Positions 16,597-60,107 of a stretch of DNA of 64,000 nt are shown one piece after another. The stretch is from positions 1 through 64,000 of IMG/VR virus record IMGVR_UViG_3300045988_115450, one strand, 5' to 3'. The position numbers and the translations under genes are program-made. Every line of letters begins with the position of its first letter. The first letter of the stretch is position 1. This DNA is from a virus. The notes under the pieces are model-generated. The model saw only the letters and a program-made list of their open reading frames with translations, was not told the origin of the DNA and made no database searches.

Positions 16597-17580
16597 CGTT
16601 TTATTATGTGCTATGTATCTCTTTCATCTTAATCGCATCTTCGAACGGGATGCCTCGACGGATTCTAGCTCTTAACGTCGTGTATTTTATTCCCGTTCTT
16701 CTGGCCCATTCTGCCATGGTTAATGTTTCGCCGTTGTAAGTAAACAGTTTATTGCTTGATTGGTTATTGCATTGTGATGTATGGTTAGACCACCTACAAT
16801 TCGACGGGCAGTAATCTTTTGAGTTATCTATCCTGTCAATTGTACATTCTTGTGGGGCCGCGTACTCGTTATATCCATTCTCGATTGCCCACTCTGAAAA
16901 CGCCGTAAAATCGTTTCGCCATTCTTCGCATACCGAAATGCCTTTCCCGCCATAATACTTATAGTTTTCAGAATTCTTATTGTAACAACGGTTTTTAATA
17001 CCAGCCCACACACGATACAGTCTTGTTTTCGACGCTTTATGTGTCGTCATTCTTTCTCTAACTAGCTCTCTTTGAAGACACCCGCATGAACGAGTGTCTC
17101 CGGTAATTAGGTCACGGCTTGACACTACCTTTTCTTTGCCACAGTCGCATCGGCAACGCCACGTTGCGTTTTTTGCCTTATCGCTACCAGCTCTATCGAC
17201 TATCAACAGTCTTCCAAACTGTTGCCCTTTTAATTGATACATACATTCACCTCCTTCATAATTTATTTACATAGCACTTAGTTCGCTAAACTATCCTCTA
17301 CCATTTCGATAGAGCGTAGACTATATCTTCATCCGTTTTATCCGGATGCCCACCGCTTCGAACCGCCGATCGCTTGCGGTCCTACTTGCATACGCAATAG
17401 TCGTTGAACCTTTCTCTGTTCGAGACTTGGCTGCTGATTGCCCAATCTACATTCTTTTCAAACCATCACGCTTATCTTTGTTTCAAAATTACGTTGTGGC
17501 GAATATAGCTCTAAGGGGTTTCCAGCAATTCAATGGGTTTGCAAGCGCATATTACTATGCACCGGGACTATCTCTAATCC
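16597..17580 (-). mobile_element. Group I-type intron (984 nt) in dnaE, carrying an HNH endonuclease
   Basis: Exon 1 ends ...GACAATAAT (U). The intron ends ...AAAACG (G). It is homologous to the glyA intron over several blocks. Confidence 0.65.
16604..17242 (-). CDS. Intron-encoded HNH homing endonuclease
   Basis: FGRLLIV..WRCRCDCG, DRIDNSKDYCPSNCRW and a C-terminal HTH-like tail. Paralog of 5707-6264. Confidence 0.85.
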   Translation of the reverse strand: MYQLKGQQFGRLLIVDRAGSDKAKNATWRCRCDCGKEKVVSSRDLITGDTRSCGCLQRELVRERMTTHKASKTRLYRVWAGIKNRCYNKNSENYKYYGGKGISVCEEWRNDFTAFSEWAIENGYNEYAAPQECTIDRIDNSKDYCPSNCRWSNHTSQCNNQSSNKLFTYNGETLTMAEWARRTGIKYTTLRARIRRGIPFEDAIKMKEIHST

Positions 17581-19527
17581 ATTATTGTCCGCAAGCAACT
17601 CGTCAATCATTGGCGACGGGTTATGATGTGGAACTCTACTTATCAAATCATTTCTATACGACGCGCCAGACGGGCGAATACACGCAGTCACCAACGACAT
17701 ATCAAAGATTGACTTCGTGTTGAAGTCCTTTAGCATCTTTCCTGCAAAAGGAGATTCCATCTGAAAGATGCCGATATTGGAAACCATCATGTCTTCCCAG
17801 ACCTTTTGGTCATCCCAATCAATTTCGTGCGACTTTGGGTAGGGGATGTTCGCCAGCTTACAGGCATCACGGATGATCTGTAGTGTGTTCAGAACGAGCA
17901 TGTCATACTTAACAAGAGACACTTCATGGATTTCTTCCATGTCAATTTGTAGAACGACGCCGCTATCCTTGTGGTGAAAGACACCGTAATTGTCATCCAG
18001 CGTAACCGGGCTAATCACGATACCAGCCGGGTGTACAGATTGAGATACTCTTGTGTTCAGGAAACCATCAAAATAATAAAAGACTTCCTTATATTTTTGC
18101 TTACACGCCTCTGCGTCTTTCCCATAATCTGCTTTAATCTTTGCTACCAAACTTACTTGGTATGGATTCTCGCCTTTGTCTGCTTCTGGATGTTGCTCTG
18201 CCCATTTATGTCTAAACCCGCGCACAATCTCTTCGATAGTCGCCAGGTCTTTTAATGTGCCGCAAGATGGAACGAAAGCAGTCTTTTGTTGCCCGAACCG
18301 TTCTATAATGTAGTTGAAGATTTTGGGCCGGTCGTCTTCAATAACGTCTGTGTCGATATCCCCCACTTCAATTCGATCCTCATTGCAAAAGCGACTAAAC
18401 ACTGTGTGCCATGTTTCTGAATTAACATCTGTGATGTCTGTTATATAAGCGACTCTTGACCCAGCCACACTGCCACGACCAGGACCTGTTATAATCCCAT
18501 TTTCATGACACCATGTAAGAATCTCACTCATAGATTGCATGAACCCGCACATCCCAAGTTTTGTGAAGACTCTAACCTCTTCTTTAATTGCGTCTCGGAA
18601 CGCTTGCTCTTGCTCTCTTGGGATGATTCCGGCCTCTAACTTTGCTTCTAGCTTTTCGTTAATATTCTGGATAAATTTTTCTCTATCTTCTTCTGCAGAC
18701 CCATAAAGGATTGGGTATTTCAAAGAAGTATCTAATTCAAACTCCTCAACCTGATTTGCCATCAAGACTGTATTGTCTATCGCGGCCTGCCATGCTTCTT
18801 CTGGGATAGCGTCCTGCTTTCTAAATGCTTCTTCCAATTCCTCACGCGACTTATACGTCAGGTCAAAATCATCTTCCGTGTCATAATGCTTGCTCTTTGC
18901 ATAAGCAAGTAATGACCGGCACTCAGCGTAGTATTGATTGATACTATGTGTATCTGTCGCTGCAATCAAAGGAATACCATACCTCTGGGATAGCGCCGCC
19001 AGATGCCTGTTGTAGACAATCTGATCCTCGCAGTCATTCGGTTGAATCTCAAGATAGTCGTACTTCTTTACGAGCTTCTCGTAGTACGGATGGCTTACGT
19101 CCAGCTTGTTTAGTGGTGAAGCCAAACAAGCGGACGTTTTGATAATATTCGGAGAGATATTCAGAAACTCATCAAACGAAAGTCGCCCGACGTAGTATTT
19201 ATGTTCTTCATCCGTTGACATACTAAGCAACTTATTAAGTTCCAAAAACCCTTGTCGGTTCTTCGCTATCAGAATCGTATGATAGTTATCTCTCACTTTC
19301 TCATGTAGAGATTCCGTCAAATAAATTTCCACGCCATGTAGGTATTTAATTCCCGCTTCATCGCAGGCCATCTTTTTAGCAACCCACCCACGGGTGTTGC
19401 CATGCTCGGTAAAACAAATAGCTTTTTGTCCGAGCTGCTTTGCCTTTTCTATGTAGAGGTTAAAATCTGTCGTCGAGTCCAACAGCGAATAGTCGCTGTG
19501 AACATGATACGCAACATAATTGTCCAA
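17581..19527 (-). CDS. dnaE: DNA polymerase III alpha-type polymerase, exon 1 (PHP + palm)
   Basis: PHP start YVAYHVHSDYSLLDS and catalytic region GDIDTD. Confidence 0.8.
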
Positions 19528-40884: not shown

Positions 40885-41133
40885 TCAAACCATTCTGATT
40901 CCCGCATATTCTTCATCAGTATATCCGCCTGGGATTCCCCATCGTGTATCTGAGTATCTGGTCATTACTCTCGTCATCGTTTTGATGAACCAAAGTGACA
41001 TATCATATTCCGCTTCTCTGGTGAATCCGTATTTCAGAAGGTACTTCCGCTCTTTAAAGTAATAAGGTATCCCAAACACGTTCCGCCACCAGTGAATACT
41101 TTCATGTTGAAAACTTTTCTTCCAATCTACCAT
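40885..41133 (-). CDS. Hypothetical protein
   Basis: 82-aa ORF. Confidence 0.4.
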   Translation of the reverse strand: MVDWKKSFQHESIHWWRNVFGIPYYFKERKYLLKYGFTREAEYDMSLWFIKTMTRVMTRYSDTRWGIPGGYTDEEYAGIRMV

Positions 41134-41162
41134 ATAGTACCTCCAGCATAGCTGCTTTAAGA

Positions 41163-41402
41163 TTACTCATTACCCTTCTTGTCTTTCTGCTCGCCGCCAT
41201 TTTCCTTCACACAAATCGGAAGCCGCCGAACATGGTAGTCCTTTCTTTCTCTTACCACGTTATACTTCTCACAGGTGTGTGTCGGGTATGGATGAGTCCC
41301 AGGGAGTCCGTACATGGCAGCGAGAGAGCTAGAGATACCAGCTCTGTACTTAGAGAATCTACACTCATTACACAATACTGTTTTAGTTTTCATATATGAC
41401 AC
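41163..41402 (-). CDS. Cys-rich small protein immediately downstream of the RT
   Basis: CNEC...HTCEK...C. There is a 9-nt gap after the RT stop. Confidence 0.45.
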   Translation of the reverse strand: MSYMKTKTVLCNECRFSKYRAGISSSLAAMYGLPGTHPYPTHTCEKYNVVRERKDYHVRRLPICVKENGGEQKDKKGNE

Positions 41403-41410
41403 CTCGTCCT

Positions 41411-42577
41411 TTAGTTTTTGAGATCCTTCTTCATCGTGGCTTCAATATCAAAGCCAAACTTCTGACTATAGCGAGTGATAACTCCATCAATACTTCCTCT
41501 GTTAACCATTCGATAGTAGCTCATAAGACCGAGCACATATTGCAGTTGCTCAAGAGGCCAATAAGTTCCGCTCTTTCTGTCCTTCGCGTAATTGAAAAGC
41601 ATCGCCTCGAAGTTGCGCTTCTTCTTATACCCAATCGTGATCTGGTTGTCCTTGTTGATCATCACACCGAGTACCCAATTCTTATGATACGAGGGGCCGT
41701 AATGAGTTTTCTCATCTTTGATGAGATAACTGGCCCCGAAAAGTCTAAACAGATTTTCAATCTTTCTGATAATGAAGCTCTTATCAAACTCAATACCACA
41801 GCTGATGTTCATATCATCAGCATATCTGGTATACGCGAACCTTCTACCCTTTTCATCAGGGTTGTTTTCCGGGTTCTGCAGGCTACGCAGAAACTTACTG
41901 AACTCAAAATCAAACGGAATCATAATCAGATTGGTCAGCATCGGGCTGATCGGCGTTCCCATAGGTAGACCTCCATCCAGGAAGCAAAGCGACAGAGCTT
42001 TTCTAAGCTCTTCTCTCCCGCTTTTGCACTCCATAATGAGACAGAACGGGTAAATCATAGACAGCGCGTTCCATACAAACTCCGGAGTGGTATTAGGAAA
42101 GAAACCGCTGATGTCAGTCTTTAAATACCACTTGCTCTTATTCCACTGATGGACTTTTGCGGCGTCTACACTACTTCTGTTTTTGACATAAGCGTATGCA
42201 GCGGCATGGCTGCTCGCATAAAACTCAGATTCTAACAGCAGTTTTAGCTCTCGCAGACAATTCATCAGTTCGTCGTCCGGCGCGTTAATCTCTCTCATGC
42301 CGCCGCTCTTTTTCGGGATAAAAAACTTATGGTAATGTGTATGAAGATCGCTTTCAAGCAGTTCCTGATGCTTTTTGTTAAATGCTCTCAGTAGTTCAAT
42401 CTTTTTCCCCGTGTCAAACCCTGCCAGGATTCTCTCGGGCAGTCTCTCATATGCAACTGTTCTAGTATATAGAGATCTCGATTCCCTCACATGTTTATCT
42501 TGAAGCAGCGCAGACATAATATCCTCTAAAGAAATCTGCTTATACGGCTCTGTAATTCTTGCTGTTACATAAATCAT
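41411..42577 (-). CDS. Reverse transcriptase, retron-type
   Basis: KKSGGMREINAP (motifs 1-2), YAYVKNRS, LKTDISGFFPN, GLPMGTPISPMLTN, YTRYADDMNIS (YADD), then NWVLGVMINKDNQITIG (retron VTG-like region) and LGLMSYYRMVN. Confidence 0.85.
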   Translation of the reverse strand: MIYVTARITEPYKQISLEDIMSALLQDKHVRESRSLYTRTVAYERLPERILAGFDTGKKIELLRAFNKKHQELLESDLHTHYHKFFIPKKSGGMREINAPDDELMNCLRELKLLLESEFYASSHAAAYAYVKNRSSVDAAKVHQWNKSKWYLKTDISGFFPNTTPEFVWNALSMIYPFCLIMECKSGREELRKALSLCFLDGGLPMGTPISPMLTNLIMIPFDFEFSKFLRSLQNPENNPDEKGRRFAYTRYADDMNISCGIEFDKSFIIRKIENLFRLFGASYLIKDEKTHYGPSYHKNWVLGVMINKDNQITIGYKKKRNFEAMLFNYAKDRKSGTYWPLEQLQYVLGLMSYYRMVNRGSIDGVITRYSQKFGFDIEATMKKDLKN

Positions 42578-42594
42578 ATTATTCTCCTTGCTTT

Positions 42595-42935
42595 TATCTG
42601 AAACTATATATGGATTTGGATGTCAGTACGAGATGCTCATCGCGGAGCTTGTCGTCGTCTGAGACGGTGAAATCCCTGACTTGGCGTTTATTGTTTGCCG
42701 GATACCCCTGCTGGTGGCGGATGTTGACCCTGTCGAACGAATATCCTTCTGGTTTTTCCTGTTGTTCGGGCGCTGCTTCTCATCAGAGAAGATGCCACCG
42801 GGGTGTTAAGCCTTCTTGGAGGGCACCAAGCATTGGTCTGCTATCGCACGCAGCGGGGTTCCTCTTTCGGACGATGTGCCACTCTTCCGTTCCGGTAAGA
42901 GTTTCTATTTTTTTAAATAGAAAGTGCTTTCAGAT
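42595..42935 (-). ncRNA. Structured RNA copy A (about 341 nt) directly 5' of the RT; retron msr/msd-like candidate
   Basis: 9-bp closing helix (42595-42603 / 42927-42935). On the minus strand this is followed by G, hairpin 42901-42923 and hairpin 42881-42900. Homologous to 48537-48883. The only ORF here is a junk-like antisense one. Confidence 0.65.
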
Positions 42936-43037
42936 ATTTAGATTGAATTGGTTGTTAGCAGGCGTGCCATTCCCCTGCATCTCTTTAGCCATTAAGGCGC
43001 GTGGCGACACGAAATTTCCACCTCAAACAACCAATAT

Positions 43038-43706
43038 TTAATATGCTTCCATAGTAAAATCAAAGGCGTCGATCAAAACTATCTTCTTGATCGAACGCCC
43101 ATTCACAAAATTCATGAAGTTTGCTACTGCACAAGAGCAAATCATCCGCACAGAAGGAGCGATACTAAGCTCCAGGTTACATGCAGATCGAGGAGTTTCA
43201 GCCAGAGCTTCCTCTTGAGTAAACTGCATGGAGTTAATCAGATTTTCAACCATCGCACTAGAACTCCAGTCAGCCGCAAAGTGTTGCGCGTCCGTCAGCC
43301 GAAGTCTGGTATCAAACACAGCTTTGATATACGGGTTTCTAGCATTTTCTTCGCAAATTTTTCTGCGGAGATCAATGTTGTCCACCATAAGGAAGACATA
43401 GCCGGACAGACGCTGGTTGGTATACCCCTCCTGAACTACTTCAATACCATTTGCATCAGGATTGATACTCAACATCATATCTTTCACGGCTTCAGCTTTA
43501 TTTCTACCGATGTCGCTATCATTGAACATCTGATTCGCGATATTGTGCGACTCAACCTTGTCAAAATCGTACAGAGTGACCTTCTCAAGCCCAGCTCTTG
43601 CCAACAATTCGGCTACAGTGGAACCGGACGCACCACAACCGATGATATGTACTCTTTCTTTAACCTTCGTGGGATTAAAGAACTCAATACTCTTCGATAA
43701 ATTCAT
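43038..43706 (-). CDS. Minimal ThiF/MoeB/E1-like adenylyltransferase
   Basis: HIIGCGASGSTVAELLARAGLEKVTLYDFDKVESHNIANQMF..DIGRNKAEA (Rossmann GxGxxG plus the E1 DxD..N..RQ-like region). Confidence 0.8.
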   Translation of the reverse strand: MNLSKSIEFFNPTKVKERVHIIGCGASGSTVAELLARAGLEKVTLYDFDKVESHNIANQMFNDSDIGRNKAEAVKDMMLSINPDANGIEVVQEGYTNQRLSGYVFLMVDNIDLRRKICEENARNPYIKAVFDTRLRLTDAQHFAADWSSSAMVENLINSMQFTQEEALAETPRSACNLELSIAPSVRMICSCAVANFMNFVNGRSIKKIVLIDAFDFTMEAY

Positions 43707-43718
43707 CTTTATACCTCC

Positions 43719-43997
43719 TTATAGCATTAAACAATTCAAAAATACATCACTATCGACTTTACTTTCAATCGGCTCAAACATCCAAGAAGCCCAAGCAACA
43801 AATCTTAATTTGCCTCTTTCTTCAATGCAAATACGTTCAACTTGAATGCCGTTAATCAAGGATGTCAATGAGCGCACTGTTATGATCTTACCGCAATAGC
43901 GCGTTTTATCCCCTTCAAATATCCCGTGATCATTTTTAGAAAGAATCGCCGTTCCACTACCTGTATCTACGGAAAACAGATCAGGGTCAGACATCAT
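43719..43997 (-). CDS. Tail-family paralog P1 (divergent), C-terminus ...FLNCLML
   Basis: Shares the C-terminal tail with P2-P5. A 16-aa N-terminal remnant ORF (MKLEDMYVGQKVRVRS) lies just upstream at 44004-44054. Confidence 0.5.
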   Translation of the reverse strand: MMSDPDLFSVDTGSGTAILSKNDHGIFEGDKTRYCGKIITVRSLTSLINGIQVERICIEERGKLRFVAWASWMFEPIESKVDSDVFLNCLML

Positions 43998-44061
43998 GTC
44001 TTCCTAACTCCTCACCCTGACCTTCTGCCCAACATACATATCTTCAAGTTTCATACGTCAC

Positions 44062-44394
44062 CTACAACAACAAACAGTTCATAAAAACCTGCTCATCAAT
44101 AGATTGCTTTAACCGCAACACACTTTTATAGAAAGACATCTCTTTTTTGCTAACCCTTACCCTGTACCAACCGCCAAGTTCATACTCAACGATCTCGCCG
44201 CCGTCTCTTATAAACTCTCTGAGGCAAGGATCGCCCTCCGCGTACATCACATCGTCGGCGTATATAAATCTTTCGTTTGTGATGATGTCTACGCTCTGCG
44301 ACACAGCCCCATTCGGAAATACCGCCCGTAAGTTATCATTAAATTCATCCCACGTTTTTGGAATAAACTCAACCCGCTGCCCAGGTCTAAACAT
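44062..44394 (-). CDS. Tail-family paralog P2, C-terminus ...FMNCLLL
   Basis: MFRPGQRVEF..WDEF...GGWYRV...FYKSVL...DEQVFMNCLLL. Confidence 0.6.
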   Translation of the reverse strand: MFRPGQRVEFIPKTWDEFNDNLRAVFPNGAVSQSVDIITNERFIYADDVMYAEGDPCLREFIRDGGEIVEYELGGWYRVRVSKKEMSFYKSVLRLKQSIDEQVFMNCLLL

Positions 44395-44403
44395 TATATC
44401 ACC

Positions 44404-44745
44404 TCACAATAATAAGCAATTTATGAACAATTTTTCATCAATTGACCTCATGTCTTCTTTCAGACACAACACGCTTTCGTGAAATTTCAGTTTTACTCCA
44501 TTTATATTCACCATATACCAACCAGTAGCATAGTACTTGATAATCTCACCTCCATTTATTAGAAGCTCGTTAAACCAAGAATCGCCTTCCCCATAAAGCA
44601 CCCCTGCAACCAATATCATTTCTCTATGAGTAGTTGAGAATTCATCTAATATCATATCTCTCGCAAACAACTCCATTAAAGCATCCCGAAATTCATCCCA
44701 TGACTTTGGGGCAAGCGTAACTTTCTGTCCAAGTTCAAACATCAT
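44404..44745 (-). CDS. Tail-family paralog P3, C-terminus ...FINCLLL
   Basis: MMFELGQKVTL..WDEF...TGWYMV...FHESVL...DEKLFINCLLL. Confidence 0.6.
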   Translation of the reverse strand: MMFELGQKVTLAPKSWDEFRDALMELFARDMILDEFSTTHREMILVAGVLYGEGDSWFNELLINGGEIIKYYATGWYMVNINGVKLKFHESVLCLKEDMRSIDEKLFINCLLL

Positions 44746-44752
44746 ATTACCT

Positions 44753-45082
44753 CTATAGCAGCAAACAATTCATAAGTACCTCTTCGTCAACATATGCTTC
44801 TTCCATCGACCGTAGCATCGTCTCATAGAACCACGCTCTTTCTCCGCCAAAGTCTACAATGTACCAACCACACTCGAAGTCTAATTCAATCACGCCACTC
44901 ATCCTGCGTAACTTATAAAAATCGGGAGCGCTATATCCTGCTGCACTAGCTGCAAGATACCCAGTGGTATCACAGCTCGTAAACCTTTTTGCGCTGCGAG
45001 GAAGATGCTTTAGGTAAGCGCTGCAAAACTCATCCCAGCTCCTCAATGCTATCCTGACTCGTTGTCCGATCTCGAACATCAT
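44753..45082 (-). CDS. Tail-family paralog P4, C-terminus ...LMNCLLL
   Basis: Start reassigned to MMFEIGQRVRI, preceded by RBS GAGGAG. CGWYIV...FYETML...DEEVLMNCLLL. Confidence 0.6.
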   Translation of the reverse strand: MMFEIGQRVRIALRSWDEFCSAYLKHLPRSAKRFTSCDTTGYLAASAAGYSAPDFYKLRRMSGVIELDFECGWYIVDFGGERAWFYETMLRSMEEAYVDEEVLMNCLLL

Positions 45083-45092
45083 ATCAACTCCT

Positions 45093-45437
45093 CTATAACA
45101 GCAGGCAATCCATAAGTGTCTTTTCGTCAACACTTTTTTCTTTTAATTGACACGGCGCTGTTTCGCCCGGCCCACCCACCAAACACTCATCTCTTACTTC
45201 GCCAAAGTCAACGCGCCAAATCCAATAGTCATCCGGTTCCAGATAAATTGTCGCTCCGTATTTATCTGGAGCATTAAAATTGTCACCTTCAATCATTTCG
45301 CATCCATCATCGACGCATTCTTGAAACACTGAATGAAACCTACGTTTCACGTGTTCCACCGCACTCTCCAAATTCCAATAAACACCGGATAAATCAATAC
45401 CCTGGTCTGTTTCTGTTATCACACAATATACCTTCAT
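45093..45437 (-). CDS. Tail-family paralog P5 (divergent body), C-terminus ...LMDCLLL
   Basis: Start reassigned to MKVYCVI, preceded by RBS AAAGGAGAAG. The tail is VDEKTLMDCLLL. Confidence 0.55.
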   Translation of the reverse strand: MKVYCVITETDQGIDLSGVYWNLESAVEHVKRRFHSVFQECVDDGCEMIEGDNFNAPDKYGATIYLEPDDYWIWRVDFGEVRDECLVGGPGETAPCQLKEKSVDEKTLMDCLLL

Positions 45438-45611
45438 ACCGGTCTTCTCCTTTCTTATGTACCTCTGAACAGCTAACCAGCTGTTTAAGTTCAAAAGTTT
45501 TCTGCTCTGGGAGTAGGAAAACTTTTGAAGCGACACAGCCATTTGTTACTCCCTCGTTCCGACAAGAGTGATATGTAATTTAACATATCTGTACAGGCAC
45601 ATATGTTTTTT

Positions 45612-46298
45612 TTACTTAATTAACATCTTACCGTCACGCCAATCGGGCCGCTCATCAATAATTTTATCTGCGTCCTCCATGAATTCTTCAAGCTCAACCG
45701 CGGCGTTCATAATCCACTCGATGCCATCCTGTACATCACGCACGTCCACCTTCTCAAACCGGTCAATGTTATCGAAAAACCATCTGCACAAATCATATAC
45801 AGCGGGGTTCCATCGTTCCACTGCGAGTTCCACATTGTCGCTTTCGTATAGGATGCCTTCTCTAACATCATAAACCTGTGAAGATATGTAGCCTTTCTTA
45901 TTGAAAATCTGAAAGACGTAGAAATCATCAACGTCTGTCAGCAAATCTGCTCTATACTTTATATCCGTAGAAGATGGACTGACACCCATGTTCACATGAG
46001 AATGCCCGTACAACCGAACCTTATTGAATATCTCCGTGTTAAGAGAATCCTGCCAGTTCACATAGTCCGCATCTTCAGGTTCGGTGCTTGCCGACGTGAC
46101 CTTCTGAGGGAATACCAAGACGTCCTCCACGATAAACTCAGCTGGATTTTCCAACCTTCTTACAACTCCGTGCCATCCAACCTCCAGATTCCTATTCATA
46201 ACAAGCAAACACGTCTTCATCCATGCCTTCTTACTGTATACGATTTTGCACGGATTTGTCGCGGCCAACAAATCCGTTGCATTAGTTGCCTTATTCAT
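45612..46298 (-). CDS. JAB/MPN (JAMM) metallopeptidase
   Basis: Exact JAMM signature HxHx7SxxD (GHSHVNMGVSPSSTD), with an upstream Glu (LEVGWHG). Confidence 0.8.
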   Translation of the reverse strand: MNKATNATDLLAATNPCKIVYSKKAWMKTCLLVMNRNLEVGWHGVVRRLENPAEFIVEDVLVFPQKVTSASTEPEDADYVNWQDSLNTEIFNKVRLYGHSHVNMGVSPSSTDIKYRADLLTDVDDFYVFQIFNKKGYISSQVYDVREGILYESDNVELAVERWNPAVYDLCRWFFDNIDRFEKVDVRDVQDGIEWIMNAAVELEEFMEDADKIIDERPDWRDGKMLIK

Positions 46299-47706
46299 TG
46301 CTCTTATTCTCCTTTATCCATTTAATTGCGTCGATGTAATTAACTACTCGCCCATCCGGCAACTCCAATACTACAGCGCCTTTTCTCAACAACTCTTCAA
46401 GGAATGATCTCAATACGACAGTATCACTAAGATTCAGATTCCCGCTTTCGGCGCACGTCGTGTCTACCGTATAAACGTAGTCACATTTGTCGCAAGATTT
46501 CTCTAGCGCCTGTTGCCAGCTCCCCATGCAACCATATTTATCAAGGTGTGTGTTGGGGAGATAGCTGTTGTATTCACAGCCATACCCATATGCCTTGATG
46601 GGTAGTACCATTCCTCCGAAAGAAAGTCTCCATGCGGAACACATTCTTACTTTGATATTAGAGTCAATGAAAATCCCTGTCATTAACTTTTTAGTATCAC
46701 TTTCTGTCAGGCCCACATACGAAGACCGCGTATAAAAAATCGACGACCGATTGTTGATGTACTCTCTCGCAATCTCTGGATCAAACAGTGTCATATAACC
46801 AGTTACAACATATACGATATTCCCATCTTTGTCACCGCTCTCAACGGACACATTTTTGTTCGACAAAAAATAATCCATTAACTCGTTCTTGCTTTCAACA
46901 TTACTGTTGTCAATTGCTTCCACCAACAAAGACCAACCTTCGTATTCTCTATACCAATCTCTCAAATCGGACATCAATTTATTGATCTGACTTCTTGCAC
47001 TCTCCATCTTCTTTGCGTATCTTTCCCTCTGTACGTTCCTTAGCTTTCCCTCATAGCCATAAAGGTAATATCTCTTTTTAGCTGAGGCCACGTCCACAGC
47101 AGCGGCAACCATATCGTTCATCGCTTTACAGATTACACTCATGCCGGAGTCTTCTTTAGACAGAATCTTAATAAACTTTGACTCCGCTTCAGTCCTGTCT
47201 TTAATGTACCATGGGCAGAATACATTGAAAAGACACACTAGGTAATGCCACGAGCCATAGTTATCCACGTTGGTAAGGACAACCGTACTCTTCCTCTCTT
47301 CATTACTGAAAATTCTCAGTATGATACCGAGTCGTTCTTTCATTAGATTCAGCTCTCTTGCCGTCTTCTCTTTCCAACTGCTCGCACATTTCATATTACT
47401 GACTAAAGTTTCTACGGCCTTAACCTTATCACACACGCAAAATGTAATCGTGTTGTCTTGAGAAGTTACCTCCGAAAAACGCTCTTTGTCTTTTATCCAC
47501 GTAATCCAATCAGCACAATTAGGATCTACCACTCTAACCATGATACGCACGTCCGCCGGAACTCTTGGCTTCAAAAACAACCGAGCCATTGCCAACGCAA
47601 AGTCATCGCCTTTGAACGTCCCGTCACCAGCAATATTAGAAAACTCAGACTCCAGCTCTGGGGCCAGCACTAAAACTTCACTGCGTTTCAAACAATTTGA
47701 AAACAT
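46291..47706 (-). CDS. Large (471-aa) protein of unknown function in the E1/JAB cassette
   Basis: Start reassigned to MFSNCLKRSEV, preceded by RBS AAAGGAGAAG. Cys-rich C-terminal region. Confidence 0.55.
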   Translation of the reverse strand: MFSNCLKRSEVLVLAPELESEFSNIAGDGTFKGDDFALAMARLFLKPRVPADVRIMVRVVDPNCADWITWIKDKERFSEVTSQDNTITFCVCDKVKAVETLVSNMKCASSWKEKTARELNLMKERLGIILRIFSNEERKSTVVLTNVDNYGSWHYLVCLFNVFCPWYIKDRTEAESKFIKILSKEDSGMSVICKAMNDMVAAAVDVASAKKRYYLYGYEGKLRNVQRERYAKKMESARSQINKLMSDLRDWYREYEGWSLLVEAIDNSNVESKNELMDYFLSNKNVSVESGDKDGNIVYVVTGYMTLFDPEIAREYINNRSSIFYTRSSYVGLTESDTKKLMTGIFIDSNIKVRMCSAWRLSFGGMVLPIKAYGYGCEYNSYLPNTHLDKYGCMGSWQQALEKSCDKCDYVYTVDTTCAESGNLNLSDTVVLRSFLEELLRKGAVVLELPDGRVVNYIDAIKWIKENKSNE

Positions 47707-47786
47707 ATATCTTCTCCTTTCTTTATGAACTCTTGGCAGGCCATCCGACGTAACCGAATGCCCTCCCAGCAACTCACTGTGTTATG

Positions 47787-47815
47787 TACGAGGCCGGACA
47801 ATGTCCGGCCTCGTA
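47787..47815. other. 29-nt perfect palindrome (14-bp GC-rich arms) without a U-tract
   Basis: TACGAGGCCGGACA-A-TGTCCGGCCTCGTA, between the Ubl-like gene and the 471-aa gene. Confidence 0.55.
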
Positions 47816-47832
47816 GATTGTGCTAACTCAAA

Positions 47833-48072
47833 TCAGATCGCGTTACCTTGCGCCTTAACAATAGCACTCAGAGTACAAATACCAGCGGCACCAAGTTCGG
47901 CAAAAGTGCAATCCATATCATCAGGCGTCAGAATCGTGCCGGAAAGAGAATTGACGCTACGGCTGCACTCAATTCCGATCTTCTCGAACAGAGAACGAGG
48001 GGTCTCTACATGTTCATCTACGGCCTGGCTATCAAAACGGCGGGTGGTACTTCTAACATTCACAATAATCAT
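47833..48072 (-). CDS. Small beta-grasp/ubiquitin-like (ThiS/MoaD-like) candidate, C-terminus ...VKAQG-NAI
   Basis: 79 aa. MIIVNVR..., a mid helix, then GTILTPDDMDCTFAELGAAGICTLSAIVKAQGNAI. This is a ThiS/MoaD-like layout with a Gly 3 residues from the end. Confidence 0.45.
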   Translation of the reverse strand: MIIVNVRSTTRRFDSQAVDEHVETPRSLFEKIGIECSRSVNSLSGTILTPDDMDCTFAELGAAGICTLSAIVKAQGNAI

Positions 48073-48113
48073 AATATACTTCCTTTCTGTTATTACATCT
48101 ATGCTTATTTGTT

Positions 48114-48503
48114 TTAGCCAGCTACTACGATCTTGGAACTGACCCGTGCCATCATAACGTCGATCTCTTCCAGCGCTTCGCGCACCTGGGCTTCAATCTT
48201 TTCTACCTTCTCGATAACAGAAGCATATCTCTCGGCAACAACCTCACGTACGGAACGGTCAGCTTCGGTAATAAGACTCACAGTTACGACCGCACGACCA
48301 GAGCCATCACAAGACTCAGCCTCATAGATAATACCGGTCGGTGCTACTACGCCTCTCTCGCCAGCGAGAGTGTAAAACAGTGCGTTGCCATCTTCGTCCA
48401 GCAGTTGCACAGACTTAGGCCGGTACAGAGCTGCGCGATTGATTTCTTCAAGAGTGAAAGCACTCTTGAGTGTTACTGCGTTACCACACACAATAATTTC
48501 CAT
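48114..48503 (-). CDS. 129-aa protein ending ...KIVVAG; first gene downstream of RNA copy B
   Basis: ORF preceded by RBS AAAGGAGAAG. C-terminal Gly. Confidence 0.5.
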   Translation of the reverse strand: MEIIVCGNAVTLKSAFTLEEINRAALYRPKSVQLLDEDGNALFYTLAGERGVVAPTGIIYEAESCDGSGRAVVTVSLITEADRSVREVVAERYASVIEKVEKIEAQVREALEEIDVMMARVSSKIVVAG

Positions 48504-48536
48504 ATTCTTCTCCTTTTCATATGTCTAATTATGTAT

Positions 48537-48883
48537 TATAAAGTGATTCTATATATGGAATGATAGACCTAACCCGTGCGTTAGTACGCTGACGGGCTTG
48601 GTTATCTGAGGTACTGTGTGATCGACGTCGCTCCAACTCCGCATCGCTTTGGCGTTTGATGCCTTACGCTGTAACGGTGGTAGGCAAGTTGTGCGGCTTT
48701 CTTTATATGCTTCGCTTAGTAATCTTAGCCTTCTTGTCGCATCCATGACGCCGAGAGGTTTCTGGTCGAGAGCCATCGAGGTTGGTGCAACCTTTGCGAT
48801 GCTTCCCACACCTTCGGACGATATGTTACTCTCCCATTCTGGCAAGAGCCTCTGTGAATTTCAGAGTTTGCAATCACTTTATA
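48537..48883 (-). ncRNA. Structured RNA copy B (about 347 nt), a diverged paralog of copy A
   Basis: 12-bp closing helix (48537-48548 / 48872-48883) at the equivalent position but with a different sequence. It is followed by G and then two hairpins. Shared blocks are CCATATATAG, CGTCCGAA, CTCTTRCCRGAAYGGRAGAG and AAACGCCAA. Confidence 0.65.
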
Positions 48884-48944
48884 AATACATTTCTAATACG
48901 GTTAAAAAAATCAGATAAAAGAATTATTTGGACTAAATGCTCAC

Positions 48945-49799
48945 TTAGTTTTCCTGCTGTCCACTCCAAACAACCAGACAATCAGGATTGGGGACACCTC
49001 TGGTTTCCTTACCATCTAGCCATCTAGCCAGTACATAAGAGGTCGTCAAGAACACACGGTGGCGGTAATGCTTGCACCGGCCATCAATAGCAGAATCCTT
49101 AATCCAATCTCTCAAGCGGACAATCTGCCTATCCAAACTAGACTCAGCATAACCAGTCTGAAGAACATTCCAGAAATATTCGAGCCTAACATCGCTCGCC
49201 CCGGCTTCTTTCGCCAGATACATGGCAGCTGTGATCGGAGCCGTGCCAAGCTTTCTCTGTCTCACCTTCAAGAAACTATTAACCCAGGAGAATTCAGCGA
49301 TGTGCTTCGAAATCATGTCCGCTCTCTTAGCTTCATTCTCCAAGTGCCTCGCACTAAATTCATTCAGCACCATGCAGATTGCAACCGAGCGCTTGTAAGA
49401 AGAAATCTTTCCTCTGTTTCCGCCCTCGGCCATACACAAAGCGTCGGCTTCACTTCTCGCCCTACCCCGGTCAATGTACGGACTGCGTTCCATATTGAAC
49501 AGGAAGAACATCTTTACTGTCTTACCGCAGCGCTTCACCGCTTCGAGCCGGTGATGCCCGTCAATAAGAACACCAGCCTTATCAAACATAATAAAGCCGG
49601 TCGGAGTATTTTCATCCCATGTGCCATTCATCATATGGGACTTGTACTTATTCACAGTGCTCTTACTGATCGGACGATTGCCGCCGGACATAGCCAACAA
49701 ACCCGTCGCCATTTCCGGAGACACGTAAGCATACGCCAACTGTCCACCGTTCCGTTCTTCTAGCAACAAGTTGCTCAACAATTCTTCATAAGCTGTCAT
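48945..49799 (-). CDS. ParB/sulfiredoxin-like nuclease-domain protein
   Basis: Start reassigned to MTAYEEL, preceded by RBS GGAGG; the listed N-terminal extension would overlap a tRNA. Motif LIDGHHRL. Confidence 0.6.
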   Translation of the reverse strand: MTAYEELLSNLLLEERNGGQLAYAYVSPEMATGLLAMSGGNRPISKSTVNKYKSHMMNGTWDENTPTGFIMFDKAGVLIDGHHRLEAVKRCGKTVKMFFLFNMERSPYIDRGRARSEADALCMAEGGNRGKISSYKRSVAICMVLNEFSARHLENEAKRADMISKHIAEFSWVNSFLKVRQRKLGTAPITAAMYLAKEAGASDVRLEYFWNVLQTGYAESSLDRQIVRLRDWIKDSAIDGRCKHYRHRVFLTTSYVLARWLDGKETRGVPNPDCLVVWSGQQEN

Positions 49800-49825
49800 T
49801 TGTATGTACCTCCTAAAAATTTTGC

Positions 49826-49902
49826 TGGTGGTTCCTGCCCGGCTCGAACGGGCGACCATCCAGTTATGAGCTGGACGCGCTAACCAACTGCGCTAAGGAA
49901 CC
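49826..49902 (-). tRNA. tRNA-Met/Ile2 (anticodon CAT), CCA encoded
   Basis: Hand-folded cloverleaf: GGTTCCT/AGGAACC acceptor, TCCAG-CTCATAA-CTGGA, GCCCG-TTCGAGC-CGGGC. Confidence 0.85.
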
Positions 49903-49978
49903 AGGTACGTTTAAAGCCGCTGAATTTATCAGCGGCTTTAAACTGTTAATGAAAGCAAGTGTCCGTATAAAACGAACG

Positions 49979-50053
49979 TGGCAGCGCCGGACTGAGATCG
50001 AACAGTCTTCCACGGAGTCAAAGTCCGTTGCATTACCGTTATGCTACGGCGCT
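49979..50053 (-). tRNA. tRNA-Gln (TTG), CCA encoded
   Basis: AGCGCCG/CGGCGCT acceptor and ACGGA-CTTTGAC-TCCGT anticodon arm. Confidence 0.8.
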
Positions 50054-50164
50054 ATATAAATCAAGCAGAGCAGAGCAGAGTTTAAAGCCATTCCAGGCTA
50101 TGTAAAGAAAGGAGGTGGTTTATCAACAATAACAGGTAGGAGAATCATTTTCTGTTGCTTGATA

Positions 50165-50239
50165 TGGGGTAGGCGACGAGTGCCGATCTCGCGTTTCCGG
50201 TTTGGAAGACCGGTGTTCTAGCCGTTGAACTACGCCTAC
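50165..50239 (-). tRNA. tRNA-Gly (TCC), CCA encoded, atypical T-loop
   Basis: GTAGGCG/CGCCTAC acceptor and CCGGT-CTTCCAA-ACCGG. The T-loop reads ATCGGCA instead of TTCRANY. Confidence 0.7.
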
Positions 50240-50269
50240 ATTTTTGCGGTTCCGCAAACCGCATTTTTT

Positions 50270-50899
50270 TTAATTCATATATAAATCATAATAACTTTGT
50301 TTTCTTCTTGGTTTCAAATCTGGATTTTTTAAACGCCTTTTGATGAACTCAACTGTATTATCCAGCCCATAGTTCCTGACGTATGTATTGATCCTGTTTG
50401 CTCCCAAACCTAAAGTTTTAGCCCAGTCCTTCCCAGTATGTATCGTTCCGTCAACATCAATAAGCGAAGTTGTAGACTTGTATTTCGAATTATCTGCCAA
50501 TGTTACCCATCTGCAATTATCAGGAGAATAATCCCCGTCCCAATCAATTCTATCAATAGTCAAACCATCATCGTACCCGTTAGTTAATGACCAACTCTCA
50601 AATAATTCTGGATTGCGCATCCAATCATCACAAACCTTAACACCCTTAGCGCCATACCATCTGTAGCTCTTATTACTCTTATCATAGCACCTAGCTTTCA
50701 TATCGCTAAAAATTCTCCGGAGCTTGTCGTCACTCCATGAAGCATCATAATTTATATAACCCCCGCTTCTTCCGATATGTCTACAAGCTTTCGCCTGCTC
50801 AATATGCCTTTTCTGTTTGTTCGTTTCAAACCCACACTCAGCACATCTCACATGGTATAATCTATGCCCGTCCCTATGCCTGAAATCACACTCATACAA
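50270..50899 (-). CDS. Free-standing HNH homing endonuclease inside the tRNA cluster
   Basis: DRIDWDGDYSPDNCRWVT..DN and a C-terminal HTH-like tail. Same family as the two intron HNH genes. Confidence 0.8.
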   Translation of the reverse strand: MYECDFRHRDGHRLYHVRCAECGFETNKQKRHIEQAKACRHIGRSGGYINYDASWSDDKLRRIFSDMKARCYDKSNKSYRWYGAKGVKVCDDWMRNPELFESWSLTNGYDDGLTIDRIDWDGDYSPDNCRWVTLADNSKYKSTTSLIDVDGTIHTGKDWAKTLGLGANRINTYVRNYGLDNTVEFIKRRLKNPDLKPRRKQSYYDLYMN

Positions 50900-51047
50900 G
50901 ACATCGAAAATACCTATCCTAGTACCAACAATATTCTCTTTTTCCAGAATATCACCATCTTTCTGCGTGTTGCTAAATAATAATCCGATGAGAGTGCTGC
51001 CCTCTCGCCTGCGTTGTTCACTGTACTACTGTTATACTAATCGGATG

Positions 51048-51128
51048 TACGGGCGACAAGATTTGAACTTGCAAGCCTTACGGCACCGGGGCCTAAACCC
51101 GGCGTGTATACCGTTCCACCACGCCCGC
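51048..51128 (-). tRNA. tRNA-Leu (TAG), long variable arm
   Basis: GCGGGCG/CGCCCGT acceptor and CCGGG-TTTAGGC-CCCGG. Confidence 0.75.
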
Positions 51129-51210
51129 ATGGCACCACTAAGTCATGGTCGGCTGCGCATTTATCCTTTTTTGAATCGTGGTAGATGATTTTGCTTCGTA
51201 CAACCACGCA

Positions 51211-51285
51211 TGGACTGAGTGGAGAATTTTGAAATCTCGACCTCTGGTTCCCAAAACCAGCGTTCTGCCTCTGAACTACACCCAG
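51211..51285 (-). tRNA. tRNA-Pro (TGG), CCA encoded
   Basis: CTGGGTG/CACTCAG acceptor and CTGGT-TTTGGGA-ACCAG. Confidence 0.75.
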
Positions 51286-51288
51286 ATA

Positions 51289-51363
51289 TGGAGGCCGATG
51301 CGAGTTCGAACTCAGCGTCTGTGGGTTACAAAGCCACTGTTTTACCACTTAAACTAATCGGCC
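51289..51363 (-). tRNA. tRNA-Thr (TGT), CCA encoded
   Basis: GGCCGAT/ATCGGCC acceptor. Anticodon loop TTTGTAA, with a C:C at the loop-closing pair. Confidence 0.7.
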
Positions 51364-51513
51364 ACGCACCCCGTTTTGCGGGGTGGCTATGTAAGGGAAT
51401 CAAAAAGGGGAACTCCTGTCTCTTCCAGGATGCCAACACACTACTACGGACTGCCAGAGGCAAACCGCCACTTTTCAGGTGTCATAGTCCGCAAACTATG
51501 GGCTTTTCTTTAG

Positions 51514-51595
51514 TGCGGGATAAGAGACTTGAACTCTTACGTCTATCGACATCGAGACTTAAACACGAGGTGTCTACCGATTCCACCAATCCCGC
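51514..51595 (-). tRNA. tRNA-Leu (TAA), long variable arm
   Basis: GCGGGAT/ATCCCGC acceptor and anticodon loop TTTAAGT. Confidence 0.75.
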
Positions 51596-51948
51596 ATATT
51601 GAACTTGCTACAACCCAGCCTGGTGGTTGACCCGTGGGCGTTGATAACTGACCCAAACCATTAACCCAGGATTTTGTAAAACTTTAACCGTTAACCTTTG
51701 ATTCTTGAACTTTAATCTTCTGAAGATCTTTGAGCCTTGAATTTTGAAATTTTAACTTTGAAGTTTGAGCTTTACAGCAACATTTCTTCTATAAGAAATT
51801 AGATTAACAGTCCAATCTTTTTGTAAGCGCAAAATTTCAAGTTTTGCTTTGTAGTTGGCACATATTTGTTCATTTTTACATCGAACCAAGTGCCGTCAGC
51901 ACGATGGGTTACCGTTTTAGGTTTTCGGGTTGCAGCAAGTTGCTTATT

Positions 51949-52602
51949 TTAGTATTCTACGGTGATTGTAGTGGTCGCATTGGACACAGATAGCTGAGAA
52001 TCTACATCCGCAGTAAACGTGTCAATCCAATCGCTCAAAACCTTGATTTCATTACCAATGTCAAGCGGATCAACGAGTTCATACGTATTGTTGGCAATAT
52101 ACTCTTCTCTCAACCGCTTAACGACCTCAGAATCCTTGGTTGTCTTGGCCTCTTTAGGCTGGCACTGGAGGAAATTCATGATATACTGTTCAGCTTTCGC
52201 TTCAATCCACTCGCCTTCATGTTTGGAAACCTCAGCACGGGCTCTTTCGTACTGCCGGACCATTACATCAAGCAAATCTTTCTTAGCCATGATTCCATGG
52301 CTTTTCATTTCGATGGCTTCGGCTACGGTGTAAGGTTCGCCGCCAATTACCACCGGGGTTTTGGCATTGGAGAGCACAACTGCTCTCTTAATAGCCGTCC
52401 GACGAGCAATCAAGTCCGTAACAGACTGATAATCAGACTTCATATCCTTCTTGAGGGTTTCGACCAGCACACCGCCGATCTTTTTGTCGCTCACTTTCTT
52501 ACTGGCAACGAAGGTTTTACCAGAAGTAGCATTGAAAATTCTAGCGTCCAAAATTTTCAGCTCTGCAAGAGCTTTATGGACGGTCATAGTTTCTTTGTTC
52601 AT
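51949..52602 (-). CDS. Hypothetical 217-aa protein embedded in the tRNA region
   Basis: ORF preceded by RBS GAGGAAC. No motif recognised. Confidence 0.5.
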   Translation of the reverse strand: MNKETMTVHKALAELKILDARIFNATSGKTFVASKKVSDKKIGGVLVETLKKDMKSDYQSVTDLIARRTAIKRAVVLSNAKTPVVIGGEPYTVAEAIEMKSHGIMAKKDLLDVMVRQYERARAEVSKHEGEWIEAKAEQYIMNFLQCQPKEAKTTKDSEVVKRLREEYIANNTYELVDPLDIGNEIKVLSDWIDTFTADVDSQLSVSNATTTITVEY

Positions 52603-52653
52603 ATTAGTTCCTCACTTTCTTATTTATGGAATTAGATTTTTATCGTGGTATCG

Positions 52654-52744
52654 TGGTCTCCCTGGGTGAATTCGAATCACCATATACCTTATGAGGGCCT
52701 TCCAATTATAAGTTGGAAGCTATAACCAATTTAGCTACAGGGAG
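52654..52744 (-). tRNA. Type II-like tRNA (19-nt variable region) with anticodon TAT, CCA encoded
   Basis: CTCCCTG/CAGGGAG acceptor, GCTA/TAGC D stem, TCCAA-CTTATAA-TTGGA, variable AGGCCCTCATAAGGTATAT, GGTGA-TTCGAAT-TCACC, discriminator A. Confidence 0.7.
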
Positions 52745-52933
52745 ATATTTGTTCAGCAACCACAACCGCCCTATCAATCAGTCGGCCTAACCAAAAGATA
52801 GGGCTGGATTGTGTTGCCCAACCGTGCCTGAGAGCTTTCTTGCCTAGCCTGTACTTAACCAGGTGTCTGCAATCAATGTTTAGGTTGCTGGTTTTGACCC
52901 TCGCTCTAGAACCAGTTAACTAGAGCGATTGAG

Positions 52934-53019
52934 AGCTACTAGACGGAATTGCACCGCCTTGAAGTCATAAGTGAGGCGCGAGAGGAGTTACGCCCACCTC
53001 TTCACCTGCTTGGAGTAGC
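52934..53019 (-). other. tRNA-like element / degenerate tRNA (no canonical anticodon arm)
   Basis: Acceptor-like GCTACT/AGTAGC and T-arm-like GGCGG-TGCAATT-CCGTC. The central stem AGAGG/CCTCT carries an 11-nt loop. Confidence 0.3.
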
Positions 53020-53024
53020 ATATG

Positions 53025-53100
53025 TGGCACCAGCACTAAGATTCGAACTTAGAACTACGGTTTTGGAGACCGCCGTTTTTCCACTTAAAACTATGCTGGT
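53025..53100 (-). tRNA. tRNA-Trp (CCA), CCA encoded
   Basis: ACCAGCA/TGCTGGT acceptor and GCGGT-CTCCAAA-ACCGT. Confidence 0.8.
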
Positions 53101-59994: not shown

Positions 59995-60107
59995 GCAGGC
60001 ATAGACAGAATCCACCTATGTTATCCCTGCGACCTCGCAGGCCAGGGCGATCCCAGCCTACGAACGCTCCCGGCCTAACGCCTGTTTATAGTCGCCGGGA
60101 CGACTCT

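Follow-up and report, generated by a model that had tools for sequence, protein, structure and literature searches.

A retron-like RNA and its paralogues accompanying a retron-clade reverse transcriptase in an uncultured gut phage

Retrons are known as bacterial anti-phage systems that combine one reverse transcriptase (RT), one non-coding RNA (ncRNA) and one effector. Classical retrons contain a single long msd hairpin, and their multicopy single-stranded DNA (msDNA) measures ~50-165 nt. The same RNA-RT architecture appears here in large phage genomes in a seemingly multi-template form, with two to four ncRNA genes per RT. The element in question, referred to as copy B, occupies positions 48537-48883 on the minus strand of a 64,000-nt stretch of viral DNA (IMG/VR record IMGVR_UViG_3300045988_115450, positions 1 to 64,000; hereafter the window). 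The window covers ~64 of the ~106-109 kb of the phage genome, and statements about the only RT apply within it. Copy B is probably a functional retron-type msr-msd ncRNA gene, one of three that would all be served in trans by a single RT.

The consensus retron transcript has an a1/a2 stem with 'the two opposing G residues', while NAxxH and VTG are retron-specific RT motifs (Mestre et al. 2020, PMC7736814). The phage locus resembles bacterial retrons in its retron-clade RT, in an ncRNA directly upstream on the same strand (copy A), and in the a1/a2 arms, opposing Gs and msr hairpins of its RNAs. It differs in being carried by large, apparently lytic, uncultured gut phages instead of bacterial chromosomes or prophages, in the number of ncRNA genes per RT, some of which lie kilobases off or in tandem, in an msd-like part of ~250 nt (copies A and B) without a single long hairpin, and in a centre that is hypervariable between near-identical genomes. 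Moreover, its neighbours are E1-like, JAB and candidate ubiquitin-like (Ubl) genes, and its RT reads VLG for VTG. The literature searched describes neither phage-encoded multi-ncRNA retrons nor an RT-E1-JAB cassette; for Staphylococcus jumbo phages, a 'retron-like RT' preceded by a long non-coding region is mentioned without analysis (bioRxiv 10.1101/2020.12.14.422802). The system would be best filed as a phage-borne, multi-template variant of the retron kind, with a layout unreported in the literature found.

Copy B and its two paralogues

Copy B is a structured minus-strand RNA and a paralogue of the element located upstream of the RT, as an earlier note on this DNA, made from the letters of the window, had proposed. 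Its parts are as follows, in 5' to 3' order of the RNA.

48537-48883, minus strand: copy B, retron-like msr-msd RNA, defined by fold and covariance model (CM), with a closing helix extendable to 48530-48889
48883-48872, minus strand: a2 arm, TATAAAGTGATT (as RNA UAUAAAGUGAUU)
48871, minus strand: unpaired G after a2, candidate 2'-OH priming (branch) G
48866-48850, minus strand: hairpin 1 (HP1), CUCUG-AAAUUCA-CAGAG
48848-48829, minus strand: hairpin 2 (HP2), CUCUU-g-CCA GAA UGG-GAGAG, putative RT recognition hairpin
48828-48813, minus strand: tail 3' of HP2, UAACAUAUCGUCCGAA, conserved by alignments
48812-48559, minus strand: variable centre of 254 nt, msd-like putative template, C-rich, T-poor and non-coding
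48558-48550, minus strand: block preceding a1, CCAUAUAUA
48549, minus strand: opposing unpaired G before a1
48548-48537, minus strand: a1 arm, AATCACTTTATA (as RNA AAUCACUUUAUA), pairing with a2

The closing helix of 12 bp and the unpaired G behind it had already been recognized in the earlier note, as had the sequence difference of this helix from the RT-adjacent copy and the CTCTG/CAGAG stem of HP1; the helix grows to 19 bp with one bulge. A hairpin at the HP1 position is present in every copy, with a sequence that is unrelated between copies. Copy B folds with the closing helix, HP1 and HP2 at a minimum free energy of -104.7 kcal/mol (z = -4.3), and copy A does so at -101.7 kcal/mol (z = -3.7), so that folding supports the proposed helices in both. 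The 20-nt HP2 pattern occurs exactly twice in the 64 kb, in copies A and B, against 0 expected, and a covariance model built from related 5' modules (CM R1) matches 48814-48881 with 74.9 bits (E = 2.7e-15). The strand assignment likewise stands: read on the plus strand, the U48844-G48833 wobble of HP2 would turn into a C-A mismatch, and among 14 sequences from related phages, 11 have U-G at pair 44-55. Since such wobbles pair on the minus strand only, the strand is fixed.

The other two copies and the RT gene are arranged as follows.

42595-42936, minus strand: copy A, retron-like RNA directly upstream of the RT gene (fold and CM R1, 76 bits), with a2 at 42936-42928, G42927, HP2 at 42901-42882, opposing G42604 and a1 at 42603-42595
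45456-45603, minus strand: copy C, third and shorter retron-like RNA, upstream of a gene starting at ATG 45437 (CM R1, 72.5 bits, match spanning 45534-45604)
45603-45595, minus strand: a2 of copy C, UAUGUGCCU, followed by G45594, HP1 and HP2
Downstream of HP2 in copy C, minus strand: tail UAACAAAUGG, then a short interior with a 13-bp hairpin
45465, minus strand: opposing G of copy C, then a1 at 45464-45456, AGGUACAUA, with a Shine-Dalgarno sequence and ATG 45437 next
41411-42577, minus strand: RT of 388 aa, assigned to the retron clade by PADLOC, NCBIfam and motifs; sole RT in the window

Within the window, exactly three sites score 72-76 bits with CM R1, and the match after them reaches 12.6 bits. 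The paralogy of A and B described in the earlier note is upheld, but the count of two was incomplete, as copy C had been missed. Copy C folds with z = -4.1 and is kept in three related contigs, where its hairpin shows compensatory changes. The closing helices comprise 12-19 bp in copy B and 9 bp each in copies A and C. Copy A ends 18 nt before the start of the RT gene, while copies B and C are 5.9 kb and 2.9 kb away from it; that copy B has no RT beside it had been stated correctly.

Pairwise alignment of A and B, a check suggested in the earlier note, reveals likeness at the ends, with 63% identity in the 5' module and 73% in the last 22 nt, whereas the centres reach 53% in a global alignment, which is not significant (z = 1.5). 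Of the five blocks that had been listed as common to both copies, HP2, the tail ATCGTCCGAA and CCATATATAG are confirmed; the central CAAGAAGGCT and AAACGCCAA fall into the 53% region, and 2% of shuffles give two shared 9-mers or longer. Besides copy C, the opposing G, the hypervariability of the centre and the inclusion of the 129-aa and Ubl-candidate genes in an RT-linked cassette go beyond the earlier description.

Base pairing and copy number in related phages

The same gene order recurs in five IMG/VR and three metagenome contigs with RT identities of 52-97% (related loci carry L numbers where they have to be told apart). Their A and B slots contain RNAs of the same plan with different helices, and the layout a2-G ... 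G-a1 is found in every close relative. For instance, the A-type closing helix reads UAUCUGAAA/UUUCAGAUA, that of copy B in L005 reads AACCAACA..ACAUUC/GAGUGU..UGUUGGUU, and that of copy B in L010 reads UUCUAGUUAGAUGUUC/GAGCGUCUAGUUAGAA with four G-U pairs, which are possible on this strand only. Across 14 5' modules of related phages, pairing in HP2 amounts to 98%, and both partners have changed at four of its pairs; in HP1, this holds for seven of eight pairs. The covariation score is 0.45 compared to 0.20 after shuffling, with none of 500 shuffles reaching the observed value and slid partners giving at most 0.21.

The two Gs were assessed without assuming them, by determining, for 92 distinct HP2-plus-tail modules from many phages, the best helix that the upstream flank forms with the downstream flank; this analysis took the place of a seven-base-pair closing-helix test that was dropped because of its high background. 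In 40 cases (43%), a G adjoined the best long-range helix on each inner side, as opposed to 5 of 113 (4%) in a control with the downstream flank moved by 1.5 kb. Among 29 distinct G-anchored helices, 95.9% of the cells pair, a fraction that is partly given by construction since these helices were picked by a complementarity search, and all ten pairs are changed on both sides (covariation 1.14 versus 0.23 shuffled, reached by 0 of 500; slid at most 0.22). No such reservation applies to the enrichment of G/G, nor to the distance from HP2 and the span, which are constant at 20-33 nt and 230-345 nt, respectively.

The plan extends to distant clades with RT identities of 40-47%, whose consensus is ...(U)GUAAU-G, HP1, HP2 with a CUYY/RRAG base, the tail UAAC(A/G)AnUUG that is also the family consensus, the variable centre and (A/U)UGUA-G-AUUAC... 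In these clades, compensatory changes affect every pair of HP2, in 7-21 of 42 sequences. Genomes can differ in their HP2 type (e.g. CCGGAACGG versus GCUGUCAGC). The alignments show that related phages have retained anatomy and base pairing through compensatory change.

These data bear on the notion that copy B is a decaying, non-functional relic of copy A, for which the lack of significant similarity between the two centres and the lack of an adjacent RT could be adduced. Yet, the B slot is filled in all seven related genomes examined (RT identity 52-97%), and each of them has retained an intact closing helix, G/G, HP1 and HP2 despite differing sequences. As a relic would be expected to lose its pairing and not to keep it by double changes, decay is very improbable.

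In total, 2122 RT relatives were found at E <= 1e-10, 368 IMG/VR contigs encode one, and GTDB genomes contribute 79 loci, all on contigs of metagenome-assembled genomes, mostly from gut Clostridia. A megablast search of INPHARED phages with the 8-kb module gave no match, and the sole tblastn match of the RT in this collection was an uncultured faecal phage with 42% identity, so no cultured phage was recovered. The family is therefore without a cultured representative, which makes the collected sequences the entry point for experiments.

At least two full-size RNA copies are present in 48 of the 61 loci having at least one full-size module, usually with one copy just upstream of the RT gene and one or two just downstream. 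Back-to-back tandem pairs, ~20-30 nt apart, occur in L040 (10604-10833 and 10862-11120), L075 and L037. L012, the RT of which is 52% identical, has four HP2-type modules (8455, 9405, 9715), one of them before the ThiF gene, so copy number and placement vary by lineage. In several distant clades (L020 10513-11055, L031, L017 ~4640), a copy downstream of the RT gene is followed by a ~177-aa protein family (MIQLTVEVSDLDCGE...). The median identity of HP2 plus tail is 0.83 within a genome and 0.63 between genomes, while paralogues within a genome are elsewhere at chance level (a2 0.50, HP1 0.54, centre 0.52). That copies within one genome share HP2 and tail only is what one protein reading several RNAs would yield, and this constitutes the main argument for use in trans.

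The earlier note had offered two options, a single RT serving two templates in trans or two cis leaders of separate operons. The former is favoured by the frequency of multiple copies, the tandem pairs and the shared HP2 and tail; the latter keeps some standing. In this alternative, the copies would be cis-acting structured 5' leaders of the RT gene, the 129-aa operon and the small-gene array, with an HP2-binding protein, possibly the RT itself, controlling translation, stability or termination, and with reverse transcription being absent or secondary. It draws on the position of copies A, B and C, whose ends are in each case followed after 18-40 nt by a Shine-Dalgarno sequence and a start codon on their strand, on the resemblance of the HP2 3' arm (GGGAGAG) to a Shine-Dalgarno sequence, and on the precedent of the type VI retron hybrid RNA (bioRxiv 10.1101/2025.10.22.683967). 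However, the a1 arm leaves the Shine-Dalgarno sequence of the 129-aa gene uncovered, and a plain leader would explain neither the closing helix flanked by G/G nor the strict linkage to a retron-clade RT. A scan for promoters and terminators was uninformative, its matches being no commoner than chance. As the copies form tandem arrays in other clades, a cis role cannot be the whole story. We regard an exclusive leader function as unlikely, although cis-leader and trans-template roles are not mutually exclusive.

The reverse transcriptase and the nearest known systems

On sequence grounds, the RT belongs to the retron clade. Its top 25 PADLOC matches are all retron RTs (best RT_II-A, 5e-41), its best NCBIfam match is retron_St85_RT with 1e-47 as compared to 1.5e-18 for the group II intron RT, and the motifs YADD and PMGTPISP (PxGxxxSP) are present. 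The RNAs exhibit a1/a2 terminal inverted repeats, opposing Gs and an msr of one to three hairpins, with covarying HP1 and HP2. Contiguity of the ncRNA with the RT gene is seen for copy A only, not for B or C. A long msd stem-loop is lacking in A and B; copy C has its 13-bp hairpin.

A plausible course of events can be formulated by analogy with retrons. The minus-strand RNA closes through a2/a1, which sets G48871 opposite G48549, as seen in the fold. The RT may then bind HP2 and the tail, prime from the 2'-OH of G48871 and, beginning at CCAUAUAUA immediately 5' of the opposing G, copy the ~250-nt centre in the direction of the tail. A branched RNA-DNA molecule (msDNA) with a lineage-specific DNA part would result, and copies A, B and C would yield three different cDNAs. 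If the RNAs are reverse-transcribed, the locus would offer a natural case of one retron RT taking several templates in trans, which bears on multiplexed retron editing tools. It would likewise tie retron-type cDNA to ubiquitin-like chemistry and identify phages themselves as users of retron chemistry.

Several points weigh against this interpretation. The RT scores 163 bits, under the NCBIfam family cut-off of 235, and reads VLG for VTG and AAKVH for NAxxH, its His being invariant in 22 relatives. Copies A, B and C match no Rfam family, retron RNA models included (whole window at gathering score; 41000-50000 at E <= 5), and the RT-proximal regions of seven distant loci gave no Rfam match at gathering score. 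Unlike in canonical retrons, copy B is 5.9 kb from the RT gene, and the A and B centres of ~250 nt are multi-branched and mildly structured (family mean z = -1.4). Furthermore, all three window copies directly precede genes, as a purely cis role would have it. Finally, all beyond the RNA fold, including the cDNA, the branch and the binding of RNA by the RT, is inference by analogy.

The neighbouring ThiF/E1-like, JAB, 79-aa, 493-aa and 129-aa proteins match no effector of the known retron types I-XIII. In classifying retrons, Mestre et al. 2020 (PMC7736814) list neither ThiF nor an association of an RT with E1/JAB.

In the type VI retron hybrid RNA of Retron-Vpa2, the template is joined to a translationally repressed effector mRNA (bioRxiv 10.1101/2025.10.22.683967). 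As in that system, the template RNA is encoded here on the same strand and immediately before a protein gene, but the effector family is another one, there is no helix-turn-helix partner, and several templates occur per RT. The position of the template just before a gene suggests that one transcript may act as both template and mRNA. By the same analogy, and speculatively, reverse transcription could affect expression of the gene that follows each copy.

The defence RTs of the DRT2 and DRT9 type (PMC12039810) also reside beside a structured ncRNA, which there is the template. The present RT belongs to another clade (NCBIfam Drt2 only 3.3e-06 over 77 residues), its RNA is closed by an a1/a2 stem with G/G, and no open reading frame (ORF) is enriched in the cDNA sense. 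Phage diversity-generating retroelements (DGRs), in turn, share with this locus a phage RT and repeated, internally divergent non-coding segments. They differ in that the RT found here is not of DGR type, no variable repeat is located in a target gene and the differences are not confined to adenine; no Avd gene was noticed near the RT, although no search aimed at Avd was made. Two copies with diverged interiors near an RT, centres that are hypervariable between phages and long ORFs overlapping the elements might nevertheless suggest a DGR-like pair of template and variable repeats that the RT diversifies, or a gene carried by the cDNA as in DRT2. Against this, the RT contains the PxGxxxSP motif of retron and group II type and matches retron models, the A and B interiors are unalignable instead of differing at adenines, and no copy is situated inside a gene. 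DGR-style scans with A replaced by N returned 0 variable repeats, a weak test as the closest relative differs at other bases too; no target gene segment with adenine-specific differences and no excess of stop-free frames were found. We consider this alternative scarcely plausible.

The put RNAs of phage HK022 measure roughly 70 nt, consist of two stems and exert their effect on RNA polymerase; no RT is involved. The earlier note had likened copies A and B to the two put sites, and the likeness consists in structured RNA copies (two or more) heading separate phage transcription units. The comparison, made by description and absence of an Rfam match only, is not borne out, since the anatomy is that of a retron msr-msd RNA and unlike the two-stem put RNA.

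The variable centre, the gene cassette and their setting

The centre of the RNA is hypervariable and non-coding, and cannot be aligned between phages with conserved flanks, as three comparisons illustrate.

L010 B against L011 B: 5' module 96%, centre 47% (z = 0.0)
Window A against L007 A: 5' module 89%, centre 52% (z = -0.1), 3' end 95%
Window B against L002 B and L003 B: 5' module 94-97%, centre 61%

In the closest genome, L005, the RT is 97% identical and the DNA flanks are 95-96% identical, and the whole of copy B is swapped for an unrelated allele, the unaligned stretch being 48531-48965 of the window and 3641-4097 of L005. The downstream 129-aa gene is 100% identical in L005 and only 52-53% identical in the phages that share the window B allele. 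Because RNA allele type and adjacent 129-aa gene disagree across phages, the RNA gene appears to move as a cassette. The putatively reverse-transcribed part of each RNA changes much more rapidly than the remainder of the genome.

By BLAST, 127 centres fall into 69 clusters, all of which consist of orthologous slots in near-identical phages. All-against-all BLAST of the centres, and BLAST against the 1.5 Mb of fetched loci, gave no other match and thus no target or source. The centres contain 0.25-0.32 C (genome 0.18) and 0.12-0.21 T (genome 0.25). The centres of L002/L006 (copy A, contig IMGVR_UViG_3300045988_122191) and of L011 (1200-1290) have a threefold tandem duplication (~21 nt, CTTCTCTGATGAGAAACAGCC), and the same centres include long homopolymer runs (A12, T21). 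These duplications and runs hint at slippage as one source of variability.

Copy B could alternatively be read as a small protein gene, in which the 98-codon ORF at 48549-48845 on the minus strand would be real and hypervariable and HP2 would be its leader. Indeed, one sense frame of copy B runs without a stop from HP2 as far as the TAG of CCATATATAG. However, all three sense frames are interrupted by stops in copy A and in most orthologous copies (14 variants translated), and the start position in A and B is AUCG and no start codon. Nor is there a family-wide excess of open frames: in 60 centres, stop-free frames number 13 in sense versus 8.4 expected and 10 in antisense versus 8.7. A protein-coding centre can accordingly be given next to no credence.

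The genes that accompany the RNAs were followed by tblastn of the window module proteins against ~82 independent loci (L005-L093 range) of the 368 contigs, from which the counts below are taken.

43038-43706, minus strand: ThiF/E1-like adenylyltransferase, 222 aa (PF00899, 5e-24), immediately upstream of ncRNA and RT gene; 79/82 loci
45612-46298, minus strand: JAB/JAMM metalloprotease-like protein, 228 aa, with an E...HSHVNMGVSPSSTD motif; 78/82 loci
46291-47772, minus strand: conserved protein, ORF of 493 aa with a likely start at ATG 47706 (471 aa); 74/82 loci
47833-48072, minus strand: 79-aa protein, candidate Ubl; 53/82 loci
48114-48503, minus strand: 129-aa protein, first gene downstream of copy B; 17/82 loci

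The order is constant: 129-aa, 79-aa, 493-aa, 228-aa JAB/JAMM, ThiF/E1-like, ncRNA, RT. As the 79-aa and 129-aa proteins are short and divergent, their counts are too low. The RT is thus tied to the E1-like/JAB cassette in nearly all of the ~80 loci examined. Searches of Pfam, NCBIfam and PADLOC returned no match for the 129-, 79-, 493- and 228-aa proteins. The profile of the 228-aa protein matches RPN11, CSN5, BRCC36 and JAMM1, RPN11 being best with E = 0.001. For the 493-aa protein, an AlphaFold2 (AF2) model with a predicted local distance difference test (pLDDT) of 84 and a predicted template modelling score (pTM) of 0.48 was obtained; a Foldseek search with it against the PDB gave nothing below E = 0.09. 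The 79-aa protein matches the Ubiquilin UBL weakly (E = 0.43), its single-sequence AF2 model is unusable (pLDDT 41), and two loci encode it as a fusion with the 129-aa family. Of a conjugation cassette composed of E1, JAB and Ubl, the E1-like and JAMM parts are hence present, while the Ubl is only a candidate.

It may be speculated that the system works with the ThiF/E1-like, JAB, Ubl-candidate and 493-aa genes in phage-host or phage-phage conflict, and, equally speculatively, that the rapid turnover of the centre reflects such conflict. Going further, one retron-type RT might generate several msDNAs from swappable hypervariable cassettes alongside an E1-like/JAB/Ubl-like module, their DNA parts acting as sequence-specific or decoy molecules in conflict. 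Such a phage system, common in uncultured gut (mostly Clostridia-associated) phages, would represent retron biochemistry used by a virus; we put this forward tentatively, as a doubtful extension of the trans-template reading.

Nearly all genes of the window are on the minus strand, and copy B is flanked by a ParB-like gene and the 129-aa gene. The former, upstream of copy B (48945-49859, minus strand), encodes a 304-aa protein with the ParB/Srx-like motif DGHHRLEA and a match to phrog_5931 (9e-33). Together with the ThiF-like gene it recalls the 'ParB-related, ThiF-related cassette' (PRTRC), although the PRTRC ThiF model matches with only 6.8e-9. Nine tRNA genes (49826-53100, minus strand) lie just upstream of the RT module, and a tRNA array adjoins this module in most related loci, too.

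The minus strand of the window further encodes two group I introns (RF00028) at 6392-6683 and 17296-17622 with 52.4 and 82.8 bits, respectively, and a pistol self-cleaving ribozyme (RF02679, 63.9 bits) at 60028-60105. A skipping-rope RNA (RF02924, 50.3 bits) is located at 42951-43031 on the minus strand, flanked by the ThiF stop codon and copy A; L011 has it, too, and L010 lacks it. Drum RNAs occur in the related loci L021 (11669-11774) and L066 (14987-15096), and a tmRNA in L020 (13341-13761). Skipping-rope and drum RNAs tend to go with particular neighbouring proteins (Weinberg 2017). Finally, four or five small paralogous genes are arrayed downstream of copy C (43719-45437, minus strand); their products end in ...(F/L)(M/I)NCL(L/M)L, and their number differs among related phages.

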